Source: Glaucostegus cemiculus
Lineage: Eukaryota
DNA length: 64,000 nt
Assembly: GCA_976551045.1 (NCBI GenBank)
Contig: CDPCPM010000056.1
Coordinates: forward strand, 13,888,001 to 13,952,000
Direction of reading: 5' to 3'
Below, piece after piece: positions 1,501-62,648 of this stretch (position 1 is its first letter; every line of letters begins with the position of its first letter). Under the pieces are notes generated by a model that saw only the letters and a program-made list of their open reading frames with translations, was not told the DNA's origin and did no database searches. The translations under genes and the position numbers were made by a program.

Positions 1501-2849
1501 AAAACAAGATTATTTTTTTACTTTTTCCAATTATTTAAAAATTCATTGCATATTAAAGTTTATTATATTTTCATGGTATTTTGCAAGCATTTATAATCTT
1601 ATTTGATTTCCTAATAAATTTACTGCTTTAAGTTTCTGACATTCAATATTCCAAGTAGGGTTTTAAATTGCATAGGTAAATTATTCTGTTTTATCTGTTT
1701 TAATCTAATCTGGAGAACTACTTTATCCCAATATTGTATACTTAGTGTTATTTTTATTCTGCGTCACAATTTTTTTTGTTTCTAATTGATGCACAGGATG
1801 TGGGGGATGCTAGCAAGGCCACTATTTAGTGTCTGCTCATAGACATCCTTGAATTGAATGGCTTGTTGAGCCAATTCCAAAGGCAGCTAAAACTCAACCA
1901 CTTTTTTATGAGATTAGGGTCCAGACGGAAGGACAGTAAAATTCTTTCTTAAAGGACAGTGATGGACTATTCTCCTCTGTTCATAACAATTGGTATTTTC
2001 ATGGTCTTCATTGCCAATGCTACTTTTTCCAATCCAGATTTACTTAATTTCCCTAATTCCCGAAATTAAATATGAAATGTCTCTGGCTCCGTCTTCCAGT
2101 GTGCTACACTACTAAAGCAAATAAATCACCCATCAGATTACTGTATGCCTGTTAACAACGTTACATGAAGGGAGAGCACGTCTGATATTTAGCACCCTTT
2201 AAATATCACTTTTAGGCTAAAATAAGCAGATGTGAAGCTCTGTTGACTTGGATTTTACAGAAGTTAACAACCCTCTGAAATAGGGAGTGGGGTTACAGAT
2301 GTTTTTTTCTTGTATATGACCTGAGAAATGACTAACATGCTGTTCAATGATTGACTTGCTATTCTGTCCACAATATGGTTATCTCATTACAATCTTTTGA
2401 AAATGCTCTGCAAGAACCAACTGCACTGCTGAAGTTAACAGTGCAATTATTATATGAAGGTATTGATGCAGACTTTGAAGCATTACAGGAAGAATTTAAA
2501 TATATATAATGTATTTCACCACTTTGGAATGTTCCCAATGCCCTTGGCATTTAATGGAGTAATGTTGATGTGTGAAATCAAAATGCACACAACAAGATCT
2601 CACAAGCAATAATTAAACAATTTACTTTATCCATTTTGCATATGGGTCAAGGGATAAATGTTGTCCTGATAAACAGAACTCTTGAAATAGTACCATGTGA
2701 TTTCTCAAATTGATGGGGCCTCTGTTTTAAAATCTGATCCAGTGAATAGAAATTTCTGTACAGTCTGTGGAATGAATGTATCACATGATTTGATGAAAAG
2801 TTTGTTTAAAGCACCTTGTAACTAATTTTTGTGCATTTTGTCAATGCAG

Positions 2850-5451
2850 CAAAATGGTTTTTTGGCTGAGGAAGTCAAGAATGGAAAGCAACTAAAAGAA
2901 AATGTTGTTGACATTAGAGGTACTTGTTCGTCAGCTGTAACTATGGACCCTGCTGAAGACTTTTCAGATTCTGTAAGAGCTTATGTGTCGAAATCTGTTA
3001 CCATGGAAACAGAAGCAACAGCAAATGCCATTGATCATCAAGGAGGACTTAATGTGAATGCCACACACGAATGCACTGGGTTAAGAGACATAAAGAAAAC
3101 CTTGAATAGTTGCAAATTAATAGCAAAACCTACTTTAACAAAACATGATGAAAACTTTAACGACAGTTCAGAAAACATAAGCCAAGAACTTCAAGGAGAG
3201 GTTCTCAAAATAGAAAAGGTTTTCGATCCTGCTACACAATTTGAAACAGTGTCTTCATCCTATGAAACGTCAAAAGTGATCTACAGCACCATTCACAAGG
3301 AGTACTTCAAAGACTATTCAGCTATAGTACTGGCTGAGCAAGCTGCTAGCACAATGACACAAAAAGATTTAGAGGTGGCTGGGCAGAGCCTTGCCAAGAA
3401 ACCTCTCTCAGTTGCCACAGTTCCAGCTGAGGTCTACCAAGAAGAAATGGTGGAGAACTTCCAGACTAGGAATGAAGTTGAAAAGGCAATGGTTGTGGTT
3501 GCAAGTACCAAATCAAAAAAGGAATCAACATCGAATCAATCAGTATTAACCTCCAATGGAGTAATATTTGAAAACTCTTCAATAATGAGTCAAAACGAAG
3601 AAAAGGCAAATAGTTTCTCTGCAACTGACTTAACTAAATCGACCATGGAAGATCCAACTATTTTAGCCATGCCACAGGATAATAAGGGCTTGATCAATCT
3701 GTCGGTGATGGATCTAAGTGGAAAGAAGATCCCGCATTCAGGCAACAACAGTAATCAAACATCAGACAGCAGGTTGATATACCAACAGGAGTCAGAAGGC
3801 CTTCCAGTTGCTATTCAAAATGAACCTTTGCCCATCACCACTCCTCCAGTGCAATGTGCAGATGACTTGGAGTCAGACAAACCCAATTGCCTCCAAAAAC
3901 ATTCAAACACAAATCAACTTAATCACGGGTTCATTCAAACAAATGGTTTGGCTGAAAGTCTGACCTCCCTCAGTAGGAAACTTGTGTTAGAGATAATGGA
4001 ACTGCAGCATCAAACACTGAGAAACAACGCCAGCCAGAGTGGCGAACTGCAGATCAAGCCAAGGAGTATTAAAGCTCAATCTGCCAAACCATTTCAAGGG
4101 GAGAAACAAAAGACAGAGATGTCAGAAAATCAAAGTGTGGACGTGGAGCACATGGATTTTGCCACAGCTCGCAATCAGTGGCTGAAGTTGGAGATGATAA
4201 GCAGAACACACAGTTATGAGTCAGCAGTCAAAGAGCAGAAGAATAACATGGTAATCAAGCATGTTGTAAAAGGTGACCCTTCCGCCAATAAATCGATAAA
4301 AAATGAAGCAACCTCTCCTCATTCTGGATCTTTGCTCTCAGAAAATAACATGCAGAGCAATACTTCCACTGGAATCAAGACTGATGAAGCTGAATGCATG
4401 AGAAAATCAATGCATCCAAATCAAGAGCAGGCTGTAGTGGTATCACAAGAGAATAAAGGCACAGTAGGGGATCTAGACCAGAACTTGTTATCGAATGCAA
4501 CAGATTGCAGTCCTTGCTCAGAAGGGAATGATTCTGGTCTAGATGACCGGACACACGGGCATAAAGGTAACAATTCACCTGACCCTGTATTTCAGAACGA
4601 ATCTTCACGGTCTCTGCCCATGATGTGTGAAAAGCCTGAAACGCCTATCGAAAAGGAGATTCGCCTCAGTCTAAAGCGGGAGGAAAGTCTTAGAAAAGCC
4701 AGAGGCATTACCAAACTTCCTTGCTCTGAAAAGTATGTAGAGATCAAAACCAGGCCACTTAATTTGCAGCCCGTTCCTTCCTCTTCATCATCTAAGGTTA
4801 AAAATAATCAGTTTGCTGAGATGCAAATGCAGCGTGAAATGTTACTTGAACGGCAGCGGGAGGAAGGTCTTATACTGGAGGGAAAGATTATGGGAAAGCA
4901 CGATGAAAGTACGATCCCAGAGATTGAGGAGAGAAGGAAATTCTTTGAGCAGCAAATTCCCTTCCCTTTCTCATTCCCCAATAAAATGTTAGCCCCGCCT
5001 ATTAATACCCCTGCCACGTTGCTGGTTTCACCTCCTATCAGGAGTCCCTTCAGTAATGAAACAAAGGTTTCCAATGTTGTTATACTGCAAAATGATCTAC
5101 TGACTTCCGAAAAAGACAAAGCAGAACTTAATGATGCTGTCCTGAAACTCAAGCATTCAAATGCAGAAACTGCTGATATTGTAATACTGGAAACACCAAA
5201 TCTGATCATACAACGTTCTTCATGCTTTCCACTGTCTTCCAACTCATCGATACAAAGAGAAGCCACATTGCAAAATAACCCCTTCTTCAAACTCCGCTCG
5301 CATGGAGCTCATTCCATTATTAGCCAAGAGATCAGGGAAGTTCTACAACGCGAGGAAGAGCTCCAGAAACAAAGGTGTAATCTCGACGGTATGGCAAGAG
5401 CTTCTGAGGAGAGGTTAGGATCTTCAACTGCAGCCGATAATTTGCCTTCAG
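2850..5451 (+). CDS. Large coding exon (~867 codons) of an AKAP2/MISP-family protein; flanking exons not resolved
   Basis: Uninterrupted ORF 2829-5471. Acceptor ...tcaatgcag|CAA at 2850 (phase 0); donor tcag|gtaaag after 5451 (phase 1). Motifs: VEHMDFATARNQWLKLE (cf. AKAP2/MISP 'IDFxAARxQF'), ETPIEKEIRLSLKREESLRKARGI, QMQREMLLERQREEGL, and NPFFKLRS...ISQEIREVLQREEELQKQR (cf. AKAP2 'PFKLRS...IEEEIRAAQEREEELKRQR'). Confidence 0.85.
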
Positions 5452-5726
5452 GTAAAGTTGAAGCAAATTAAATGTGAGAGATTGAAAACTGCTAGTATTG
5501 CACTTAGAGTCATAGAGCAACATAGCATGGATGCAGGCCCTTCAGCCCAATGAGTCCATGCTGACCATGGTGCCAACCCAGCTAGTCCCAATTTCCTGCG
5601 TTCGGCCCATATCCCTTTAAGCCCCTCCCCTCCATGTACCTATCCAAGTGCTTCTTAAACAATACCATTGTACCTGCCTCAACCACTTCCTCTAGCAGCT
5701 CGTTCCGTATACTCACTGCCCTCTGC

Positions 5727-5912
5727 AACTTCCTTGCTCTGAAAAATATGTAGAGATCAAAACCAGGGCACTTAATTTGCAGCCCGTTCCTTCCTCTTCA
5801 TCATCTAAAGTTAAAAATAATCAGTTTGCTGAGATGCAAATGCAGCGTGAAATGTTACTTGAACGGCAGTGGGAGGAAGATCTTATACAGGAGGGAAAGA
5901 TTACGGGAAAGC
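5727..5912 (+). repeat. 186-bp direct copy of exon segment 4714-4899
   Basis: Ungapped alignment with 7 mismatches by manual count. Confidence 0.95.
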
Positions 5913-13112: not shown

Positions 13113-14034
13113 CTATTCTTTATAAGCGGTATTTATGATCTCCATTTAACCCAGGCATTCAGGAATGATGTTTCTTCTTGTTCTCAATCCTCTATGTTCC
13201 TTCAAATTAGTTCATAACATTGTTGGTGTGGATTCATGTCCTTCACTTCAAGGCTGTTCTTGAAACACATTAGATCCGGTTTTACTGGATTCTTATCTGA
13301 CTGATCACTTCTACTATTCATAGATTTCACAATACAGGAGAACAATATCATGTTACAAAGGACAGAACACAGAGTTCCAGTGCTTGTTCTGAAAGTTCAG
13401 AATTAGCCTGAACTTATTACAATTATTTTAAGTGACAGCAGTTAAATTAGGCAATTCAAATTACAATTGTGTTATCGCACAGCACATTGGAAACACGTGA
13501 ACTGATTGCAGCACAAAAACATCCTTTTATTTACAAAGATTGTTTCTTCTAAAATTGGTGGTTTTGTAACCTATTTCACGTTGTTCAATTTTCTAGAACT
13601 ACTCACATCGAGATCAAATACTCAACATATGCTTATGTAATAACCACAATCTACTGCAAAAAGCAAAATAGTTCTTGCCCGTGGAAAGAGCCTGTTTCAG
13701 TCCAAAGGGCCATTTCTGGGTTTTTTTTCAGAAGCTTCCTAGTTGGGAGCCCACTGGGAGCAATCCTGTTCCAGCAGCGAGGAAGTTGGAGCTGCTTTGA
13801 AGCCTGAAATACCTAACCGTTGATTTACTTGTCCCGAATGGGTAACACAAAAGCACACCGAAGGAGCCCGGTCCAGTTGTGAGTGACCTGGACTCATTGA
13901 ATCATACAGCGCGGAAACAGGCCCTTCGGCCCGCCACGTCCGTGCCGCCCCCGTACTGTCTGCACCGACCCCATTTACTGGCGCTCTGACCACCCGTGCA
14001 CCCGGTTCCCCCTCCGCGGTCGGCTGGGCCGTCA

Positions 14035-14397
14035 GTCACCCTTTCGGGTCCGCCTGAGCTCGAGCGTACCGTGTCTCTTTCACGTCCGCTTGAGCTCCAC
14101 CTTGCCGTATTTCTTTCAGGTCCGCTTGAGCTCCACCTTACCGTCACCCTTTCACGTCCGCTTGAGCTCAACCCAGCCGTGTCCCTTTCAGGTCCGGTTG
14201 GGCTCCATCCTACTGTCCACCCTTTCAGGTCCAACTGAGCGCCGCCGTGCAATTCACCCTTTCACGTCCGCCTGAGCGCCCTCATACCATTCACACTTCG
14301 AGGTCCGCTTGAGCGCCACCGAGCCATGTTCCTTCCAGGTCCGCCTGAACTCCGCCCTACCGCCGCCCGCTCAGGTACGCAGGAGCTCCGTCATCAC
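14035..14397. repeat. Degenerate 36-37-bp CpG-rich tandem array, ~10 units
   Basis: Core ctttcaggtccgcttgagctcca recurring every 36-37 bp. Confidence 0.9.
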
Positions 14398-17300
14398 ATA
14401 CTGAGTCCTGCATGATTAATTCCAAACTAGCATCGTCCAGATGCCAGAACATGTCTTGTACTTGGACCAGTTCATTCTAACTTATGCCAGAAGGGCCCAT
14501 GCTGTGTAATACCCCCTGAAACAGCCCAATGCAGCAACAGTGCACGTCAGCACCAATGGGGCAAAAGTCGACTGATCCTGCACTGGGAAGCTTTAGGAAC
14601 CTCACTAATAACTCTGACAAGTTAAAATTGATCTGCAGTTCCAGGGACAAAGTATTGCATGTTACTTCTGTTTATGAAAGACTGTTTACTTCTCTCCATA
14701 GATGCTGCCTGACCTGCTGAGTTCCTCCAGCATTTTGTGTGTGTTACAAAGTATTGCTCACCTTGTTTCTCTTCCACTGTTGCTGATGGTCTTTTTTGCT
14801 AAATCAGTTTATTCTGTTTAGGGATCCAGTATGTGGAGATAGTCAATTAGAATGGATAAGGCAACGCAGAAAATTTGAGAGAATCCTTGACGTAAAATGT
14901 AAAAGATCCTTTCACTGCTGACATAGAGCCTCTCCCATCTGCTGTGCTTACTGCAGATTTGAGGTGCACTCCTTGTGATTTTCCATCCCTATCATCTCTG
15001 GATCACTAGTTTAGGGACATGTGTAGATACTGAATTTTCCCTTTTTAGCTTTGATTCCATTCCAAGGTGGGCTTTTCTTTTTAAGTTTTAACAAAAGATG
15101 GAGATTACAGATCTCAGAAACTCAGGCATCTACTTTTAGTCTCTACAATATGCAACAAAGTCAAAGTCGGTAATAATAGCACAAACAGACTAGTTCAGGC
15201 TTTGCTGTAATTACTTCTTTGATTAAATCTTCATCTTCTTTCATGTAATTGTGTGCAACTACTTGTTGTGGGCTCATTTCCAGCCCACACTTTACTCTTA
15301 CAGCTTGACCAGCATAACCCACAGACTAGTTGTATTGGTCAGTGGACAATATGAACATTTCAAAATCCATCCACAGCATTCTTAAAGCAAAATGAATGAA
15401 CAGGTAAAATCTCCATGGTTGATATTGATTGCCAGCACAGAGTTTTACAGATAAAGGGAAAAAATTATTTTTTCATTTAGGGCTTACGGGATGTTTTTTT
15501 AAAATTTATTATCAGTTGAAACCAAAACCTGCTTCCATTCTTCCATTTAGGAGTTCAGAGGAGAGCAGTTCCCTTCTTGATTCTCTATTTGATCAATAAT
15601 GCTACTGTTACCCTTATTTTGGATCTACCTATTTTTGTTCTTCTGTGTTTAAAACATACTGCCATATAAACTGTTCCTGCTTATTGAAGACTGGTTGTGT
15701 TAGATTTGAAGCCAATCACTTACTATTCTATTTTCCCAAGACCTCTAGGTACTAGTACTGGGTGAAAGATGATCCTCTGTGGATATACTAATAACATACC
15801 ATCTACCTACAGGGCACTAAAGCAACAAGAACTCATCACAAGAATGCCCTGGCACTGCACTTGGAGATTGCTAGATGTCCCAGCAACTAAAAAAACAAAT
15901 AGCACTTCATAAGCATGCCAAAAACAATAAGTGAATGGGATTGGTGGTTCGGTTTGGTTGGACAGGGTTGTTGGGGGTGGTGGGTATGCAAAAATACTAT
16001 TTGATTTCTCATATTTTAATTCAAGGATTATTGTCAATTTGAAGGCATGATATGCTTAGATTACATGAACTCTATTGCACTGAAATAATGTTGGCCACTA
16101 TCTGAGATACAGGACTGAGTGCATTGGGGTCTAACATAGCTTTAAATGGTGTTAGAGTTTTGAATTCCTTTAAGAAATATTGTTTAATGGAGCATGTGTG
16201 ATCAGAACTGAACCCTTTGACCATGCTTCCCACAAATTTTTATATAAATATTAACCCTCTGTGCAAGAAACACAACTGGAACCAGATCCAAATAAAAATT
16301 ATGAATGCATGGATATAACAAAAATAAAAGCATAGACAGACTGATCAACATCTGATGGAGAATGGTGAGGTAATATGTTCAGTTTCGTCGCTAATTGACC
16401 TGTTTTGTGCTTAAAATATTGTTTTATTATTAAATGTAATCTGTGCACAAGTTCATTTTTGCACAATAATCATTATATCCTGCAGCTTTTATCCTGTTAT
16501 GCAGTTTTTCTTTTGAAAATTCATTGCTATGTGGGTGTCTGTGTGTCTACAAAGTTATTACACTGTCTGGAATGACTTACCATGCAGCATAATACTCTGA
16601 AAACCTGGTTAAGGAGATACATACAGAAATGGCTATGGTCTAAGGAATTTTTTTTTCTGAATTATTTACAGCTCCAACCAACAATATAAACTTAAAATGT
16701 AATCTCTTTGATCAAACCAGAAAACATAGTTTCCATAATTCACAAATGTTAAGATTCAGCTCCTTGGTTAAAAATTTAGAAATCAAGTGGCATCATACAT
16801 AATACTGCTAAATACAATATGCATAGCAATAGATGTAAAAACTATCACTCATTCACACTCATTCTATACTAATTCAAATGATGCCAAGTTAGAGAAAGAA
16901 AATTCTTTAATGTCCATTAAATTTGTAATATAATGGGACAAGTTCACTTACAAACCAAAAAAAATACATTGAGTCGTTATTAATTTGAGAATGTTACCTT
17001 TTAATAACATTACTTTTGATTTATACTAGAATTTTGTAGACCAAGTTATATCAGCGAACATCTTTTTCTATTAAATAGTATTTAATAATCTAAAATCACA
17101 GAAGTAATCCATAACTACAAACATTGTAACTGCTTGCTTTTCACAGCTAATGCCTGTTACTTTCACACGCTTTTGCCTTATTGGTTTGTTAACCTGTCAC
17201 ACTGTTAATCTCTAAGTAATTCACACTTATGCTGTTTCTGGAATAGAAAGTAAAATAATAGTCTTTTGATGAAATATTTGAATTCTCTGCCTGATGAATC

Positions 17301-17419: not shown

Positions 17420-17512
17420 TCAAACAAGGCTAATTCCAACAAGTAATTTTATCAGAAATGTTAGGTTTCCGCAGATGTAGATTGTTAATACCATCATCTT
17501 AAACCTATGACC
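17420..17512 (-). CDS. FRRS1: FRRS1 terminal coding exon 15
   Basis: [33 protein letters not shown]; 93 nt. Confidence 0.95.
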   Translation of the reverse strand, partial: GHRFKMMVLTIYICGNLTFLIKLLVGISLV

Positions 17513-29500: not shown

Positions 29501-32500
29501 GAGGAAATAATTGTGAGCCATAACATATGGTGGAAACTGAGAGAACTAACCGTGAGCCTTAATGTATCGTGGAGACCGAGAACCCTGCAGTTCTTTAGGA
29601 GAACCATGTAAATGTACTTTCCCTTGTGTAATCAGTGGTTGCCGATGATGTTTATGAATTCTTCCTTTAATAGGAATAAAACAACAATAATTATATTACA
29701 TTTGTTAGGAAAATTTGCCAATATTTTGATACTTAGGTAGTTAATGCAATGTTCCAGGAATAGTTATAATGAATCTAATATAATAAAAAAAACTTAACTA
29801 GCAATAGTCCCTATGGTAAAATGTATCAGAGTACAGGCTAAATTTTAATTAAGTGAAAGTAAATATTATTACCTATAGTTGAACATCAATAAAACATCAG
29901 TTTAATAATGTTAAAACTATTTAAACTAGTTTTGCAACAGAACAGTTGGAAAGTATATGATGCATACCGCAGCCATTCCAGCCAGGTTGCACAGATAAAA
30001 GGATGAGGGTCTAGTATTGCAATGCATAAAAAATGCAAACAAACCTTTCTGTCCTATAGGCCCATACATGCCTCCTCATGCCAATCCCGCCCCCACTAAT
30101 CATTATCTAACAGCATCAACACAACATTCCATATCTTTCTGCCTTGCATCTGTATTTGGCTTCCCTTTGAATTAATCTACGCTTTTTGCCTCAACCACTC
30201 CCTGCAGTTGTTTCTGCATTCTAACCATATAATGCGTAAAGAGACTTCCAAATTACCTGTTAGATTTATTAGTGTATACCTTCTATTTCTAATTCCTTGT
30301 TCTGGACTTGCCAGCCATAAAAATATTTTCTCTATATTTAGCCTACAAAATAATCTTAGAGTATTTCAGGCCTTTAGCAGGTCACTTTTTTCACATTTTC
30401 ACAGTTCTGTATTGTTCACAGTCTAACATGAGTGTGGTCTAACCAAATTACTACACAAACTGCAGAGAGAAGCAGTTACAATCGGGCTCTGATTGGAGAT
30501 TTTCCTTGATTTGCATCCAGTGACAAGGAAACAAATGAGAACAATATTAGACCCAATGATTTAGGCTGGGAAATGAAAAGGGCATGCAGACCATAATCCA
30601 GCACAAGCACATTCAAGAGAAGAGAGCAGAACATCACAAAACAGATACTCCACAAGAAAGGTTTCTTGTACTGAATTTCCTTATGAATAGATCAATGGAA
30701 ATTCAGAGCAATCAAACATTGTGGTAGGTTTTACAGTTTTTTTCTTTCCCTTTAGGCTGAAGTCCTAATTGGCGCCTCTGTTGCAACTGCATCAGGAGCA
30801 TTACAATGTGATTCTTTCCCCGCTGTTTTACAAAGAGTGTTGAGAGTATCATCCCACAAGGTGGTGCTCAGCTCTTGCACAGCAAATAGAATCGACTTTT
30901 ACTTAGAGTCATTATTCTAGATCCAAACAATTCCAGTGCAGTATTCTGATGGATGGCATTGACTCCATCTGTGATTTATGTCTGGCATTCCTGGAACTGC
31001 AGAGGAGATGACAAGCCCAGTCTCATCCTCTGCTCATCCCATCAATTCTGTCCTCTGATCATCCAGTCTATTCTGTTATTTATTCATCCCATCAATTCCA
31101 CTGCCTGCTAATCCCACAATTCCATCTTTCAGCAGTAAATCCAGAACAGTAATCAGGGGGTCCAAACCCCAGCCATGTTTTCCCAGAACACCTTGGCCAC
31201 TTCCAGTGTCATCCTAGCAAAGAACAGCAACTTCCACCACAGACTAATGCTCTAATGCTGCACTAGCCTTTGAGCAGGGGTGCTGCCTGAACTGAGCTGG
31301 GCAACAGCAGCGTGGTGTGCCACTTTGTGTGGTGAACAGAGAAGGTGACAGGATTATGTTAACCTGGGGGCAGTTGGGATGTCCAAATGTTTCTGGATTA
31401 GTGAAGAGGCAACAAATATGTCTGTAAACTGGATAGTTCAATGAGGAGATTAGCTCTGTGAATTTTGGGAAAGGCATTAGATGAACAATATCCCTAGTGA
31501 AGGGAGGAGGAAAATGCCTTTGTAAAGCAAGGGAATGACCATTGTGTTTACCTTCAGAGATGTAGTAATTTGGATGGCCCATCAAATATGGATAAAACCC
31601 TGTATCACTGTACTGTTAAATAAATTCAAGCTGTTCAGGTCTCTCAGCGGTATCACTAACTATGCATGCTGCAGATCTGCTTACTCTACATTGTCTGTAA
31701 GCGGCAAACCCACCATTTTCTGCTTTCCCTTCTGCCAGGAAAATGTAATATCGCCTGTCCAGGTCAAAGCGTTCACTATATTTAGGGAGCCGAATATTTC
31801 TTCTGAATGAACACTGGATCACCCCATCTTCCAACCTCCATGCCATGTCATAAATAGAAACCTGACAAAAAATAATCGTTGTTATAATTATTTCCAAGTT
31901 GAGATATCTGTTGCCATTGAATAGCATAAAAAAGAACATATGAACATTAAAATAAAAGAGTAAGAGGAGTCCATCCCCACATTAAGTTCAATTTTTCCAG
32001 AATCTAGGTCTAGTGTTTTATCTTAATCTTCCATCTATTGAATCCTATTTTAGGAAACTCTGGATGGATCATAGAAGGACAACATACTGTTGTTCAGGGT
32101 GAACGTCTTCCTCTTAATTTCTTTTTGTAAAAAATTTTAGTAAACATTTATCTCCCCTTCTCAACAGTTGTCAATATCACACCCTCTTCAGCTTGCTAAT
32201 TAACCCTGAATCATTTAACTTTTCCAGGATGCTTTTATACAAGTCCACTGTTTTTGGAACATGAGATTTTCTTTGCTCAAGGCTATGAATATATTGTTGT
32301 TTTATTGCGTGTGAGCTGGAGAATGCCCTACTCATCTTGGAATTGTACACAGCAAACTTGTAGTCAAAAGCCCCATTTAGGCAGGTAGGTGGAAAATTTG
32401 GATTCACTGCACCTACCTGTGAGCTCAGTATTGGATGTGAGCGGCCAGTGGAACGGGCTGGATTGATCTGCACACTTTGATCATTAACAACGCATAAATA

Positions 32501-35500
32501 AACATCATCATCACCCTGTAACAGAAGATTTTTAATTACATATAAATTCAAGTTCAACCATGTCAACATACCAATGAATCAGCTTGCTGTGATTTTTTTT
32601 ATTGTCTACTTTATTTGCTCATTGACAAAATGAAATAAGCTTGGAGAATATATTGCAGGCTCGTGTATCCTTGACCACCTTGTGCAGTGTTCTTTATTAT
32701 TAACTCTATGTTATATTATGGCCTCACTTTTATTATTACTGGAAACCTCAATAGGGAAGATTTTGAGGCCTCCCACCTGGCATTTCACCCAAAATGTTAG
32801 GGGATGCAATGTTGTCGTGCATTCCCTCCATCAGTCCCACCAGCCTTACGCTGAGGAATCAGTATACATTGTGACCATCATTCAATTACTGCCCAAGCAA
32901 AGAGGCTCCCAAAGGTAAGATGAAGGAGCAGAGAGGAACAGAAGTTCACCTGCAGGCTTCACAAAAGCAGACAAGATTGTTGTGCTTCAGCAGCTGTTTT
33001 ATGGGGAGACTGGCAGATCCTTCCCGCTCTTTCTAGCCACACAATAATATCAACAATTTCCAGTAACGTAGCATCTTTATGGAGCAAAGCTTCCCAAGGT
33101 GCCTCACAAAAGCGTTATCATACATAAATTGATGCTAAGACACATTGTAGGTTCTCAGGAAGATGACCAAAAGCGTGGTTAAGCAGGTAGGTTTTATGGA
33201 GATTCTTACAGAGTAAGACTGCAGAGAGATCTGGGGAAGGAATCCCAGAGCTTGGGGACACTTGATGCTGAAGGCAAGATTGCTAATGGCAGAGCAATTT
33301 CATTGTGGATGCTCAAGAGGACAGAATTACAGAAGTACAGATATCTCTAAGAGTTATATGACAGGAGGAGATTGCAAAGATGGGGACTGGTAAGTAACAG
33401 AGGGATTTAAAAAGGATGGTACATTTAAAATCAAGGCATTGCTTAATTAGGAAACAGTGTAGGTTACAAGCTCAGAGGTGACAGGTGAAGAAAGCTTGGT
33501 GAAATTCAAGATATGGACAGCAGGGTTTTGGATGATCTCAAAGTTACAGGTGTCCAGGACTGCAGTGGAAGAGTATTTTCTGAAGAAAGCAAAGGCATGA
33601 ATAAGAATTATGGTTGGGGTTGGAGAATGTTAAGAAAATGAAAAAAAAAGAGATTAAAGTAGGGTTAGTGTAAATGAGTGGTTGATGGTTGGTGCAGACT
33701 CATTGGTCTGAAGGACCTGTTTCTACCTTCTATGATTCTATGAGGGCGAGGATGTTAACAGCCTGAGGGAGGGGCAGAGAAGTATGCTGAAAGTTCTAGG
33801 AAACAATGAATACAAATGCTGGTCCATGTTTTTGCAGGGACTTAGTGCTAACAACATAGGCAAATTCTCCTCAAGGAGATGAATTAATAACACAGCCTCT
33901 GGTCCTTAACAACTGGTATAATCAATGTAAAATAATCCAGTGCAACCAAGATTTTATTTTGCCATAATACTCACCATCCATTTGTCATCTGACAGGGCAA
34001 ATGAGATGTACCCATTAGATGGTCCACTCAACTCAAAAAGCACTGAAGAGCCTTGCACTGCAAAGGAGAGGAAGAAGCACAATCTGTCGAGCTCAGGGTC
34101 ACATCCGGTAGGATTCCGCAGGCAGGATTTCTTATCACCACAGCCTGTAGCATTAAACTAGCAACATAAGAAGCTAAAATAGGTCATTGATTCTTAATAA
34201 TTCAATCTAACTACATAAAGAATTTAGATTGTAAACCATCAGCCTGATTTGAAAAAACGTCTGGAAATTGTTGAGCATATAAAATCCCTTCTGAAAGAGC
34301 AAAAGTAGTTAAAATAGACTGCTTATCTGACTTACTTAACTGATGGTGGGAGATCGAGGAGAATTTCATGGAATGTCCTTCACAAAGGATTTTGTTTGCT
34401 TTAGTGTTAGAATTCATTTGACTACATGGGAGGGAATGATTTCAGATGGCACAAGGGTGTGCACACTGCAAAACTGTCAATGTACAAAACTCATTAAGAG
34501 ATATTGGGGACTTAATGGTAAGGTCCACACTAACTAAATCCTACATCTGAAATGGAGGCAGCCTGACATGTGCTGGGCACCTATCTGAGGAATCTTCTTA
34601 TTATTGTATGTATTTACCCTCGCCACAGGTCTCCCCAAGTCCCACATCCCCCACTGCAGCTACAACTCCCATTTCCCGCTGATTGCTAGATCAGCCTCAC
34701 CCTTCCATTGCCCTGACGCGCACCACCACCTCATAGCATCATAGAGTTGTACAGCATAAAAACAAGCCCTGCAGCCCACCACGCCTATGTATCCACACAT
34801 CCCACTTGCATTAATTCCATATCTCTCTATGTCTTGCTCATTCAAGTACCTGTCCAGTTGCCTTTTCAATGCTGTTACTGTTCCTGCCTTTACTACCTCC
34901 TCCGGCAGCTTATTCCAGATACTAACTACTCTTTGTGTGATACATTTAGCCCTTAAATTCCCTTTAAACCTCCCTCCTCTCACCTTAAGGCTACGGCTCT
35001 AGTTTTAGACACTCCTACCATGGGAAATGGACTCTGGTTATCTATCCTTTCTATGCCTCTCATAATTTTATAAAGAGTAATATTGGATAAGAATAATATT
35101 AAACAACCAAGCTTGTTTGTTTTCTATCCAGAAAAAAATTGATAAGAATGCTCAAGTACCACAGATGGAAATTACTGTATGAAAAAATTCTTGACCAAGA
35201 TAGTGGAATCCATTTCATTTCTTGGAAGACTGACACAAAGGATTTCTGTAAACTGCATCATTTTATGTAAAAGTTAAGCTTGATAAAGCAATTCAAAGTT
35301 TTCGAAAGTACTTGAACTAATTTGATGGCTACATAGATATTACATGATCACCTTCACATAGGTGCTCTTCTAGGGCTGTTTGGCATGCAGTTCCGAGTCT
35401 GATATACGCATATACAAATTAAATAAATACATGAAGAGTTCCCAAAATATTAAACCCATATGTGGAAAATCAACTTCAAATAAAGGATCACTTCTCATCT

Positions 35501-38500: not shown

Positions 38501-41500
38501 ACACTAACATTGTCGGTTTCAGAGTAGCATTCTCTGCTGATCTAATATCAAAATGTTACACAGCAGATGGGATCTCTGCAGGCAACTCACTCAGCAACAC
38601 TCTCTTGCTAGAAGGGAGTGCTGATGATGAATTAATTGGTTAGAGGTAGTGGGGATGGTGCGGAGTGGTGGGTTGAGGGGTTGGGAGGTGATGGGGGATG
38701 GGAGGTGTGTGTGGAAGAGTGCTCCTAGGAGTTCAGAGGGACTTGGACTTGGACAGGCCAGTGAAGGAGAGTGCCTGCAGGGGACATCTTAGAGGCATAG
38801 ATTCTTGAAGTGGTACAGCGTGAAAACAGATCCTTCTGTCCCCTAAGTTCATGCCGACCATCACCCATTTACACAAACCCTACTTTAATCTTTTTTTCTT
38901 TTTTCCTCCACTCTCCCATCCACACTAGGAGCAGATACCAATGGCCAATTAACCCAGCAATCTGTACATCTTTGGGATGTGGAAGGCAACCAGAGCACCA
39001 GGTGGAAACCCAAGCAATCGCAGGGAAAACTCCATCCAGACAGCAGTAGAGGTCAGGATAAGCATCATGCAGACTCTACAGAGCTGCAGGCAGGTACTCC
39101 TGACAGGAGGTAGCTAGGGATGTCTCCATGAGGGGATAAGCGTTGTCTCTTATTTCCCCAACTTGGGGAAGCCAATGCAGGTAAATGACCTTGCCCCTTC
39201 TGCCTGTTCCTACAGAATGAAGAGAACGTAGATGAAATCACCTTATGGATTGAGTTTGGGTGACCTCCCAAATGCAGCGGTGTGTAGCAAACTGTGATAC
39301 ACGGCAAAGATCTGTACTCTGTACTAACAGAGTACTCTGCCCTCTGCACCATGTAATGAATTGACCTGTACAATTGGTATGCAAGACAAGTGTTCACGGT
39401 ACTTCGGTACAAGTGACAATAATAAACCAATACCAATACCAAGATCTTCAGCATAAGCCTGGAATGATCCCGAGGCTAGGAACCTGAGAGTATCCTTGAC
39501 CTTGACCCTCATGGGCAAAGCAATCCGGGCACTCATGAAAAGGTATATTTAATATCTCCATGTTGGCACAGCAGTTAAATTACTGCACTAGAGACTCAAA
39601 GACCTGAGTTCATATTGCACGATCACAGATCTGGAATTTAAATGCAGTTAACAATTTAGTGATCTGTGAACACCAGATTATCAGATTGTTGTACAAACCT
39701 AATGATCTTCAGGGAAGGAAACTAGTCATCCTTACCCAGTCTGGGCCTGTATATGTCTCCAGACTCACCAATGTGGCTCATTTTTAAATGTCCTCTAAAA
39801 TGGCCTAGCAAATCATCTAATTCAAGGGCAATTAAATGCTAGCTTTGCCAATAATGCCCAGGTCTTGAAATATGAGTAAAATAATGCAGTTTGAGAGTTG
39901 GCCATTTAATATTACAGTTTCAGGAGCAAAATGCTTCATAAAAGCTAGTTGTTCTGCAAGTAAGAACTGACATCTTTGTTATGAGTGAGATTAAACATTT
40001 TGCTACAGGCAAAATTGTACATTTTATGCAATTGCTGGTGTTATTTAGGGGAATCTTACACCAGAACAAAAAAGCTAATGCAAAAAAAATTGAGGAAGGA
40101 AATTTCTCAGGAAGCACTGAGGCACCTAGAGGTATGTTCAAAATTGCTCTACTCTGGGTTAATCAATTTTTCAAAAACACAGCATCATTTTTTAAAGAGA
40201 AATGTGAATGAATTTCTTGCCATTTTGCTTTCTTACTTATCTGCACAGATTGTCTCTGAATCTTGCAATGATCCATTGGTCTATACTACAATTTGGATGG
40301 CTGCATAGAGCTTAAGGACTGAATCAGCAAGCTAGAGGCAATGATCTGGAGGAATATGTTCAAATCCCACGACCAGTTGGAGAATAACATTAATTTTATT
40401 AAAAATCTGCATAAACATCTACAAATATTAATGGTAAACAGAAAACCATTGGAATCTCGTAAAAACCCATCTGGTTTTGCAAAAAATGATTTTTGTAAAA
40501 GGAATATGTGAATCCAGACCCACAGCCGCATGATTAATTCTCATCTGCACTCTGAAATGGTCCAGCAAGCCATACAATCTAAGGGCATTTAGGGACAGGA
40601 AACAAATGTTGATCCTGCCATTGATGCCTACAGCCTGTTATGAATAAAAAAAACATTATTTTCTGATCTTATAACTTCTGCACCAGTTTTAAGATGGCAT
40701 ACATACCTTTACACCCCCACACATCAGGAGCTGGGAATTCTGATCATCAATCAAAGTAAAGGTCCCAAGAGGTCCTGCATTCAGATCAGCAGCATCTCGT
40801 GCTTGTATAAAAAATCCTTGGAATGAAGTTCCAGACTGCCTCACACTGAGGGTAACTGAACGTAAGGGAAAACAGTTTCAGAGAAGGGAAGCAAACAGTC
40901 CACATGCAAACAGTCACTATTATTGCAATCTGGAGATAACCAAAAGAGACAGGAAGGGCACCAGACCTGTCAAGTGGACAGGAGAATCATTGAGAGGTTC
41001 GTTCCTGACTTTCGCAAGATGACCAGTTCAAAAGCTGAAGTAAGCCTGTCACACCAGCTTTTGAATGTCATGGAAAGCAAAATAAATGAGAAAACCCATG
41101 GGACATGGTATTTCTAAATAAAATCTTTCCACACCTGCAATAATCCATTACCACCGATGCATCATTAATGTCTTTATTCCAGTGATCAATCTGCTTATGA
41201 CAATGTAATTATTGACCTTGGGGTGGTGGGATTGGTCAATGGAATCACAATTAAAAATAACTATCTCCCTTCTCCAACCCCTGGATTCGTTGTAGAGAAG
41301 GTAATCGAATTAAAGCTGTTGAGAGTTGGCCGGTGCCTGCTCTCAGTGATTGTTGGCACTTTCATGGGTGTGCATGGATGAAGTTGATAATCACCAAGGG
41401 GGTTCACAGAAACTTGCTGGTGACTGTTGATATTACAATTCACTGCACTACAGGGTTACTCACTTGCGACATATTTAGGCTCATGTAGTGTTAATGATGC

Positions 41501-50929: not shown

Positions 50930-51360
50930 AGCAATGTGTGAAGGACGGGGAGCTGTGCTGAGGGACAGGCCGGGGAGGGAGCCCTTTCCTGCCCCGCACA
51001 AACATGGTGGCCCTCGCCCCGCTCTAGGCCTGTGCGGGGCAACCGGCTATAACGAACCGGTTTCCTTTCCCGTTTGCTCAGGAGTCAGCTTCCTCCCGGG
51101 GGGAGAAGGAAGGCGGGTGAAAGCTGAGGGCCAGACCCTGCTCTTGGCCCGGAAGAAGCGGGGCTGGAGGCGGCATCCCAGAGCCGAGCGGCCGGGAACC
51201 GGGGACCGGGCACCCGGGGCGGTGGAGTGAGAGGTTGGGCCCAGGTCCGGCACCGCGGCACCGGGCTCGGGTCACCTTGAGGGCGGCGACGGGAGGCGGG
51301 GTGAACAGCCAGGAGCCGGCGGGTCAGAGCTGGAAGGAGGGAGGGAAGAGAGCCCGGTGG
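50930..51360 (+). promoter_or_regulatory. CpG island; probable AGL promoter and non-coding exon 1
   Basis: Very GC/CpG-rich, ~2 kb upstream of the AGL ATG exon; ETS-like CCGGAAG (~51149) and GGGGCGG box (~51216). TSS and donor not determined. Confidence 0.7.
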
Positions 51361-51369
51361 GAGGGGCAA

Positions 51370-51975
51370 GTTTGGTGGGGGGGGGGATCAGAGAGCCTGG
51401 GGTGGGGGGATCAGAGAGCCTGGCGGGGGGGAGAGTCAGAGATCCCGGGGTGGGAGTGTGGGCTGGGCTGGGCTGGGCTGGGGTGGGGTGGTGGGGTGGG
51501 GGGTGGTCAGAGAGCCTGGCCGGGGGGGGGGGTGGTCAGAGATCACCAACGTGGGCTGGGGTGAGGGATCAGAGAACCCAGGGGTGGGGGGATCAGAGAG
51601 CCTGTCAGTGTGGGGGTGGGGTCAGAAATCCCGAGGAGGGGTTGTGGGCTTGGGGGGGGGGGGTGAAATCAGAGAGCCTGGGGTGGGGGTGGGAGTGTCA
51701 GAGATTCCGAGGTGGGGGGGGGAATCAGAGACCCCGGGGTGTCTGTGCCGGGGGTGGGGGTGGTCAGAGACCCCGGGGTGTCTGTGCCGGGGGTGGGGGT
51801 GGTCAGAGACCCCGGGGTGTCTGTGCCAGAGGGGGGAGGTCATAGACCCCGGGGTGTCTGTGCCAGAGGGGGGAGGTCAGAGACCCCGGGGTGTCTGTGC
51901 CGGAGGGGGGAGGTCAGAGGGTGGAAAGATCCCGGGCTGGTTGTGTGAGGGGGTGGTCAGAGGGTAGCGAGAGCC
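51370..51975. repeat. G-rich minisatellite-like region (tcagagagcc.../tcagagaccccggggtgtctgtgcc units)
   Basis: Visible ~38-39-bp units at 51722-51920 and shorter related units upstream. Confidence 0.85.
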
Positions 51976-52059
51976 TGGAATGGGTATTGGATCAGGAGTA
52001 TACTGAGAGGTCAAAGTGAGTTGAGGGAGTCAGAGGGTGGAGAGAGCCGGGGTATGTGT

Positions 52060-52905
52060 GAAGGAGGTGGGGGGGGGTGTGAAGTAGTTGGGGGGTGCGG
52101 GAGGGGTGTGTGTGAAGTAGTTGGGGGGTGCGGGAGGTGGGGGGGTGTGAAGGAGCGGGGGGGTGCGGGAGGTGGGGGGGTGTGAAGGAGCGGGGGGGTG
52201 CGGGAGGTGGGGGTGTGTGAAGGAGCGGGGGGGGTGCGGGAGGTGGGGGTGTGTGAAGGAGCGGGGGGGGTGCGGGAGGTGGGGGTGTGTGAAGGAGCGG
52301 GGGGGGTGCGGGAGGTGGGGGTGTGTGAAGGAGCGGGGGGGGTGCGGGAGGTGGGGGTGTGTGAAGGAGCGGGGGGGTGCGGGAGGTGGGGGTGTGTGAA
52401 GGAGCGGGGGGGTGCGGGAGGTGGGGGTGTGTGAAGGAGCGGGGGGATGCGGGAGGTGGGTGGGTGTGAAGGAGTTGGGGGGTGCGGGAGGTGGGTGGGT
52501 GTGAAGGAGTTGGGGGGTGCGGGAGGTGGGTGGGTGTGAAGGAGTTGGGGGGTGCGGGAGGTGGGTGGGTGTGAAGGAGTTGGGGGGTGCGGGAGGTGGG
52601 TGGGTGTGAAGGAGTTGGGGGTGCGGGAGGTGGGTGGGTGTGAAGGAGTTGGGGGGTGCGGGAGGTGGGTGGGTGTGAAGGAGTTGGGGGGTGCGGGAGG
52701 TGGGTGGGTGTGAAGGAGTTGGGGGGTGCGGGAGGTGGGTGGGTGTGAAGGAGTTGGGGGGTGCGGGAGGTGGGTGGGTGTGAAGGAGTTGGGGGGTGCG
52801 GGAGGTGGGTGGGTGTGAAGGAGCGGGGGGTGCGAGAGGTGGGGGTGTGTGAAGGAGTTGGGGGGTGCGGGAGGTGGGGAGGGTGTGGGGGGGGGGGTGC
52901 AGGAG
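52060..52905. repeat. 35-36-bp G-rich minisatellite, ~24 copies, probably in AGL intron 1
   Basis: Unit ggagttggggggtgcgggaggtgggtgggtgtgaa and variant ggagcggggggggtgcgggaggtgggggtgtgtgaa. Confidence 0.95.
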
Positions 52906-53300
52906 GTGGGTGGCGGAACAGCAACCGCTTGCCATGTAGACTGCAGTAGCTCTAAAGCCCACGGTTTGAGTGGTGATGGTCTCAGCATTGTTACCTACAG
53001 CGCCTGCACCGACCGGTGGCTATTGCTGAATACGGCTGGCTGTCATCTAACGTTTCTCAAGCCAACTGTCTTGTGGGAGGAAACCAGTTGCGGATTGCTC
53101 TTGGGGCTGGTGTTGCTGCAGCTCAGTCTTGCAAGGGAAGACTGTTGGAGTGTATAATGTTAAAACGCAATTGTTAAATGTTGATGGTGGGGAATCGTCC
53201 ACTTGATCTGCTGTCCATTTTGTGTACGCTTTTAGGGGATTGCTGATTTCACCTTAGTTACTTGCTGCTGCGGAGAATCAGGCACCATTACAAGTGAAAC

Positions 53301-61548: not shown

Positions 61549-61756
61549 GGTATGAATTGCAGTTTCGCCTTGGTCCATCTTTACAAGGGAAAGATATCCA
61601 CGTGCACACAAACTATCCAATTGACAAAGGAAACTTTGAACGTTATCAGTTTCATTTACTTGAGTGGCAGAATACAACAGGAGGAGATGACTCTGATAAA
61701 TTCTGTGCAATCAATCTGCAGATGTCTGGATCATTTCAATTTTATTTTACCTATGG
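61549..61756 (+). CDS. AGL: AGL second coding exon
   Basis: [24 protein letters not shown]...[24 protein letters not shown]; AG/GT, phase 1->2. Confidence 0.96.
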
Positions 61757-62648
61757 GTGAGCTCAAATTAAGATTTGCTTCCTATTCTTAAGCAATTGAA
61801 TAACCTGTTAAACTGATTTTACAATTATTTTCACTGTTGCCCTTCCAATTTTTCTCTCAAGAAGCTGCTGAACGATTCTGGACTATGGTTCAAAAACCAT
61901 CAACTGCTTCCAGTAATCCTGCTTGTTTTTTTTTAACATATTAGGTCCAAGCAGTGAGTGACAACAGGCAGATTGACTGGAAAGTCTCACAGATGACATC
62001 CACGTGTGTGTGGCAATAAGTTGAACAAATTTGGAATATAAAACAGAAACAGAACCAGGATTAGACCTTGTGCCTCCCCTGCTGTTAACTAAAATCATGG
62101 CATATCTTTTAATTGACCACCACTTTCCTATACTAACTCTTTTCCCCTTAATATCTAACATTCTATCAATCCACCTTGAGTATGCTCAGCAGCTGAACCT
62201 CCACAGCTCACGATTCCAATGGTTTGCCACCCCTTTTTTTAATGAATTCTCAGTTCTGAATGCATTCTGTTATTGCTTTTCCTTTGTACTATCTGGATGG
62301 ACTGATGTGATGAAATGATCTGTATGGATAGCATACAAAACAAAGTTTTACACTGTACCTCAGTACATGTGACAGCAATAAACATTATTATGCTATATCT
62401 TATTTTGAGACTATGAACCCTGGTTCCAGATATCCCAGGCAGGGAAAACATGCTTCCTCCATCTTCTCTACCAATTCATTGTATATGTATCAATGAAATC
62501 ATCTCCCATTCTTTAAAATTTGAGAATATAGGCCCAGTCTGCTTACTCTGTTCTCATAGGACAATCTCAGCATCTCAGGAATAATATATTTCTACAAATG
62601 TTTGAAAATATTGAATGACTTACTGAATAATTTTGTTTTAATTTAAAG

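Follow-up and report, generated by a model that had tools for sequence, protein, structure and literature searches.

What gene lies downstream of PALMD and convergent with FRRS1 in the ray Glaucostegus cemiculus, and how does it relate to AKAP2, MISP and MISP3? The window, by which we mean the whole stretch of 64,000 nucleotides analysed (G000:C56:13888001-13952000), carries on its plus strand, at 2850-5451 (start at 13890850 of the contig), a main coding exon of 2602 bases, recognized by its splice sites, reading frame and motifs. It begins in phase 0 after an acceptor AG at 2848-2849, ends in phase 1 before a donor GT at 5452-5453 and comprises 867 codons plus one base. The longest ORF of the window (2826-5471; 881 amino acids, stop to stop) contains it, and across the exon there are no stops in the coding frame against 50 and 73 in the other plus-strand frames. 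The initial annotation had described an intact 2.6-kb exon with the family motifs, and both descriptions stand, all of the named motifs being found. It had also proposed the gene as a candidate fourth ohnolog, kept in this lineage and lost in mammals. Such an ohnolog is already on record: the PDG family and PDG4, the neighbour of PALMD, were named in 2012 from work in which PDG4 was found in teleosts only (Hultqvist et al., 2012; PMC3405040). The loss holds but is wider than mammals, the same report describing no PDG4 downstream of tetrapod PALMD; no named tetrapod protein falls in the PDG4 class in our material either, including a 190-row tree with 55 PDG4 rows, most of whose added rows are unnamed. 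Hultqvist et al. also report none in the lamprey and elephant shark assemblies of that time, and a literature search, with most subscription journals outside it, returned no PDG4 paper on cartilaginous fishes beyond that negative.

The gene has a first exon of its own, of 12 codons with a phase 0 donor, which lies upstream of the window (G000:C56:13879789-13879824) and 11 kb from the main exon. Its pattern, MI[SP]xW, is shared by 47 database proteins, which range from sharks to teleosts and all belong to the PDG4 class. Transcription from this exon would yield a protein of about 880 residues. Similarity to AKAP2, a trait of the PDG family, is seen in shared blocks and in a match to Pfam AKAP2_C that stays under the threshold (E 1.5e-4, 21.5 bits; cut-off 27), while the chimaera orthologue scores above it (44.5 bits). 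Candidate expression contigs cover introns, have coding pieces about 92% identical and are of uncertain kind; they are uninformative on expression and splicing and were set aside.

A second family trait, a position directly downstream of a paralemmin gene, is found as well. PALMD is absent from the window, as had been stated, and lies upstream on the same strand, with exons at C56:13831272-13864254 (+) that stop some 27 kb short of the PDG4 main exon. This paralemmin set has a long last exon with a CaaX box at its end, and its early exons match teleost palmdelphin models. A Paralemmin family search of the genome gave 13 matches, with sets on C157, C54 and C56 and a doubtful match on C433 that by eye looks like an unrelated coiled coil and was rejected. 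Between the PALMD set and PDG4 we also observed a homologue of PALMD exon H (G000:C56:13870930-13870976; L023), which ends in KKVLM and a stop and is in phase 1, fitting an internal donor in exon G. Exon H is described from tetrapods only in PMC3405040; given its homologue in the ray, it is therefore probably an ancestral exon that teleosts lost.

On the other side, FRRS1 runs on the minus strand (17423-40877), convergent with PDG4 as the initial annotation had it, with a Reeler domain at 40692-40877 (E 1.2e-9), DOMON pieces at 33957-34157 and 31616-31978, and a membrane part. We identified its last exons, near 19165-17423, by inspecting the translations by eye (the one that was Pfam-scanned gave no match); its last stop, near 17420, is about 1.5 kb from the terminal exon of PDG4. 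The N-terminal exon of AGL, the glycogen debranching enzyme, follows on the plus strand (61557-61760, by a domain match), in what we take to be the human order, PALMD-FRRS1-AGL. Between the FRRS1 and AGL exons seen, G-rich tandem repeats at 51100-53020 produce long minus-strand frames, rich in Pro and His, that are spurious. FRRS1L was not placed by a DOMON search of the genome, which overlooked even FRRS1 itself.

A homologue search that scored 7999 candidates gave 65 matches. The top ones were 14 cartilaginous-fish proteins, 44-73% identical over residues 430-867 and named uncharacterized or AKAP2-like (orthologue names elsewhere include MISP-like); bowfin and teleost proteins came next, many of them named palmdelphin isoforms and containing a paralemmin domain. 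Sturgeon, paddlefish, gar, bichir, lamprey, AKAP2, MISP and MISP3 proteins were added by further searches, one of which was drawn on via the best 150 of its 433 matches. The main tree (74 rows, 244 columns, mixture model, lamprey outgroup; of 316 selected columns, 39 at the start and 33 at the end were removed as noisy or missing) contains four clades, AKAP2 (100/100), MISP (100/99), MISP3 (97/94) and PDG4 (100/98). The 28 rows of the PDG4 clade comprise the query, 11 other cartilaginous fishes, 15 ray-finned fishes and the protein P0016, and they take in PALMD-linked fish proteins, palmdelphin-fusion models included, apart from PDG1-3. The query sits among the rays (100/100) on a short branch of its own (0.058), those of Hemitrygon and Narcine being longer (0.24 and 0.29). 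It scores 624 against the PDG4 clade profile, which left out the query but took in near relatives, and 193, 190 and 23 against the other three classes. Grouping the cartilaginous rows with AKAP2, MISP or MISP3 was rejected in each case by AU tests (p 0.0057, 0.00017 and 0.0011), made on 37 rows with a simple model and after inspection of the tree, with the rival groupings named beforehand in the initial annotation. The gene is almost certainly the syntenic orthologue of PDG4. Moreover, since PALMD lies upstream on the plus strand and the separate clade contains PALMD-linked proteins, the proposal that PDG4 and PALMD are a pair dating from the early genome duplications of vertebrates is supported, the query nesting in none of the three other clades. 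Two further proteins deserve mention: P0016 branches outside the cartilaginous and ray-finned groups, as would fit an origin in a lobe-finned fish, and P0219 of the sea lamprey is a PDG protein with three repeats and a WEAG tail, from an animal in which PMC3405040 reports none.

The conserved blocks of the main exon all lie on the plus strand, and two of them contain features largely confined to the PDG4 class. The H-x-DF-x-x-AR-x-QW helix at 4149-4181, identified by alignment, class counts and the structure model, has its leading H in 180 of 191 PDG4-class proteins and in 0 of 264 others, and the strict ILET pattern of the VILETPNLII ... NNPFFKLRS block at 5181-5300 (alignment, class counts) is present in 173 of the 191 and in a single one of the 264. 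There are three charged helical repeats: repeat 1 (ETPIEKEIR...REESLR) at 4638-4709 (31.7 bits; helix 599-617), repeat 2 at 4824-4889, which is degraded in the ray (2.9 bits; 24.4 in the chimaera orthologue), and repeat 3 (QEIREVLQREEEL) at 5325-5378 (23.4 bits; helix 820-854). A repeat profile made from the non-PDG4 paralogs thus finds two strong repeats and a weak one in the query, and three in chimaera, sturgeon, MISP, MISP3 and lamprey. Repeat 2 occurs in sharks, rays, chimaera, sturgeons and lamprey, whereas the PDG4 rows of gar, bowfin and teleosts are without it. When the ray protein is compared with those of other cartilaginous fishes, the repeat blocks are the most alike, at 74-77% identity; the first 600 residues reach 39-55%.

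The PDG family was defined with a C-terminal motif that includes an invariant WE (PMC3405040), and this trait is absent from the ray gene. A remnant terminal exon at 15813-15890 (+), with its AG at 15811-15812, is aligned in register with the last exons of AKAP2 and MISP from the same genome, and no other site on the plus strand of the window matches the motif as well (13.6; the next scores 9.0). Read in the ancestral phase 0, it is open for 25 codons and encodes a decayed PDG motif with LE where WE is expected; joined straight to the phase 1 donor of the main exon, it gives Gly-His-stop, with TAA at 15818-15820. The initial annotation was silent on this exon and on the intronic copy at 5727-5912 discussed below. 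A regular-expression scan of the window for the motif found no exon with an intact WE. The same absence extends to all 39 named shark and ray PDG4 models, from 15 species (one unnamed member excluded), while WE is present in 2/4 chimaera and 8/9 non-teleost ray-finned PDG4 models and, among the shark and ray paralogs, in 9/9 models of MISP and 13/15 of AKAP2. The tails were also back-translated, as a best case and from gene models rather than DNA or reads, in 13 species, two stingrays whose models end at an earlier donor being omitted. In the +1 frame, and at the offset that the exon has in the window, the motif can be encoded in 8 of the 13, each above all 40 shuffles; the tails of the other 5 do not decode to the motif. 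For catsharks and Heptranchias the W is obtained by no choice of codons, and the +2 frame scores low.

In chimaera and bony-fish PDG4 a middle stretch sits between the main exon and the motif. We searched the 10.4-kb intron of the ray gene with 95 queries from chimaera, bony fishes and paralogs and found no convincing middle exon; the best match listed, at 14367-14450 (E 0.003), stands beside a GC-rich repeat, has an unfit splice phase and is probably due to chance. The same method recovered the two middle exons of MISP in this genome, with closer queries, and a diverged exon could escape a search limited to queries of those three kinds. The segment 14350-14690, which follows a GC-rich repeat at about 13990-14370, is single-copy intronic DNA that faintly resembles the middle exon of PDG4 and the motif, probably by chance. 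Loss, in the ancestor of sharks and rays, of one or more exons that bridged the phase 1 donor and the phase 0 last exon appears to be the simplest reading of these sequences. The last exon would then have been read in a shifted frame or terminated at once, and the protein would have survived without the WE motif. A message with its stop in the last exon evades nonsense-mediated decay; the new stop lies there, and the message should therefore escape and the loss be tolerated.

Alternatively, the ray could possess an ordinary full-length PDG4, with a diverged and unannotated middle exon that restores the frame in part of the transcripts, the models representing an exon-skipped form. The 15813 exon, with its open phase 0, its motif score and its intact acceptor, would be consistent with this, as would the chimaera models, which are of both kinds, and the faint resemblance of 14350-14690 to middle-exon and motif words. 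We nevertheless consider a full-length gene unlikely, because the invariant W is L here even in phase 0, because catsharks and Heptranchias could not encode it at all, and because the middle exon is missing from every one of the 39 models while those of MISP are annotated and easily found in this genome.

The loss of the motif, the stop two residues into the last exon and the degraded repeat 2 could also mark a gene in decay, whose long frame merely lingers as the ray protein loses its function. The C-termini of rays are varied, the branches of Hemitrygon and Narcine are longer, and PDG4 is missing from tetrapods according to PMC3405040. Yet 867 codons are free of stops on a short branch, orthologues in 15 shark and ray species are intact and conserved block by block, and the first exon has been kept from sharks to teleosts; decay is thus quite improbable. 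A local measure comes from the intron, where a 186-base copy of exon bases 4714-4899 (5727-5912, +; 96.2% identical) lies amid repeat-derived sequence and lacks a splice context. Polarised against the alignment, the gene has two amino-acid changes in this stretch and the copy three; both derived changes in repeat 2 are in the gene, the copy holding the orthologue residues there. These very small numbers give no sign of constraint in the 186 bases.

PDG4 could also be entered in frame from PALMD, like the teleost fusion models. The phase 0 end of PALMD exon E falls on the very residues at which 12 of 12 listed teleost fusion models join, and a read-through that exchanges the lipid-anchor exon of PALMD for PDG4 is therefore possible; three zebrafish PALMD-PDG4 read-through ESTs are reported in PMC3405040, and in mouse a Palm2-Akap2 read-through is described as swapping out the lipid-anchor exon (bioRxiv 10.64898/2026.08.18.745582). 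That PDG4 is chiefly the 3' half of such a protein and not an independent gene is nonetheless improbable, since it has its own conserved first exon 11 kb 5' of the main exon and since none of the 39 shark and ray models, with lengths to 1518 searched, is fused to PALMD.

The initial annotation would have counted the three other paralogs elsewhere in the genome as support, and two were found. The AKAP2 orthologue is on C54, after PALM2, and that of MISP on C767 (L033, L034), with an intact WEAG tail and middle exons. MISP3 was not recovered: searches with the AKAP2_C family, and others with the coelacanth MISP3 protein, entire or in pieces, yielded only PDG4, AKAP2 and MISP; nor was PALM3 in the genome-wide Paralemmin family search. 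Among the named proteins of the MISP3 class, none is from a shark or ray, and the 83 MISP3 rows of the 190-row tree include no shark-like branch. Possibly the PALM3-MISP3 pair was lost in cartilaginous fishes, or else it falls in an assembly gap. Of a quartet of four clades with lamprey outside, as expected from two rounds of genome duplication (2R), three members are thus found in this genome. PALM1 is on C157 (L009) and ends about 39 kb from the end of that contig, with no long ORF in between; linkage to MISP, on C767, is not visible across the contigs. With MISP3 and PALM3 not found and orthologues named AKAP2-like or MISP-like, the gene might be taken for a copy of AKAP2, MISP or especially MISP3 that was translocated or arose in this lineage, but this is very improbable indeed, given the AU tests, the presence of both the PDG4 and MISP3 clades in ray-finned fishes (Polypterus, Polyodon), the AKAP2 and MISP orthologues on other contigs and a locus that coincides with the PDG4 position published in PMC3405040.

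What the protein does can be approached through its paralogs. The structure model of PDG4 is largely disordered (699 of 867 residues with pLDDT below 50, mean 43), with helices at the conserved motifs, and a search for related solved structures gave 0 matches. A profile of 17 AKAP2 PKA-RII helices finds no match in PDG4, and the helix is present in 119 of 120 AKAP2-class and in 0 of 191 PDG4-class proteins; we infer that PDG4 would not be a PKA anchor, with the reservation made in PMC3405040 that RII binding cannot be excluded from sequence alone. MISP binds and bundles F-actin, mainly via its C-terminal half, and no recognisable actin-binding motif is reported in it (PMC9097542); a FERM-binding peptide of MISP is the topic of PMC10249358. 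A small repeated motif is common to MISP and AKAP2, and AKAP2 is associated with cortical actin (PMC3601349). By analogy, PDG4 is somewhat more probably than not a scaffold for cortical actin, disordered and with short charged helices, whose C-terminal half would most likely bind and organise cortical F-actin.

Taken together, an orthologue of PDG4 that starts from its own exon, has lost the bridging exon along with other sharks and rays, and makes a WE-less, disordered, putative actin scaffold is the account we consider probable. A broader scenario is offered tentatively, at somewhat less than even chances: the shark-ray ancestor would have lost the bridging exon or exons, and the WE motif, the only one common to the whole family, would have been decaying out of frame since then, with selection still acting on the splice site and the 2.6-kb exon; PALM3-MISP3 would have been lost in cartilaginous fishes and PDG4 in tetrapods, leaving the quartet whole only in ray-finned fishes. 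Two points are new here: PDG4 is widespread among cartilaginous fishes, and sharks and rays as a clade appear to have lost the tail that defines the family. Because the WE motif was tested and is missing, we file the ray gene as a variant orthologue by descent and not as a canonical PDG member. The finding refines a gene family and reveals no new kind of system. It supplies the cartilaginous evidence that the 2012 study lacked for a duplication origin of the paralemmin-PDG pairs, and in 16 cartilaginous fishes it gives a name to genes labelled uncharacterized or wrongly AKAP2-like. Should the frame loss prove real, PDG4 of sharks and rays would be a naturally occurring deletion mutant in which the WE motif is parted from the helical repeats, a help in assigning functions to parts of the human MISP and AKAP2 proteins.

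Compared with known systems, MISP (C19orf21, PDG1), an F-actin bundler, is the best functional analogue of PDG4. The two share the ETPIE(K/R)EIR repeat and two more, the DF/NF helix and disorder; MISP differs in forming a clade apart (AU p 0.00017) and in having an orthologue of its own on C767, with middle exons and an intact WEAG tail. AKAP2/PALM2-AKAP2 (PDG2) has in common with PDG4 the FKLRS block with the last repeat, the DF helix, the read-through architecture, a large exon that ends in phase 1 and a homologous last exon, but it contains the PKA-RII helix and one clear repeat only, and its orthologue follows PALM2 on C54. MISP3 (PDG3) resembles PDG4 in its three repeats and NPFFKLRS and is set apart by its clade (97/94; AU p 0.0011), in which no cartilaginous-fish member was seen. 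Among known PDG4 genes we infer that the teleost 'palmdb isoform' and si:ch211-153l6.6 models would represent PDG4A/B. Unlike these relatives, the ray gene has retained repeat 2, missing from the rows of gar, bowfin and teleosts; it is without the middle SSPSSPM exon, the in-frame WE motif and fusion models, and it comes from a cartilaginous fish, a group in which PMC3405040 reports none. Like them, it lies downstream of PALMD on the same strand, falls in the same clade (100/98) and has the same type of first exon, the H-x-DF helix, the ETP repeat, the ILET-NPFFKLRS block, the phase-compatible read-through site and a protein free of an RII site.
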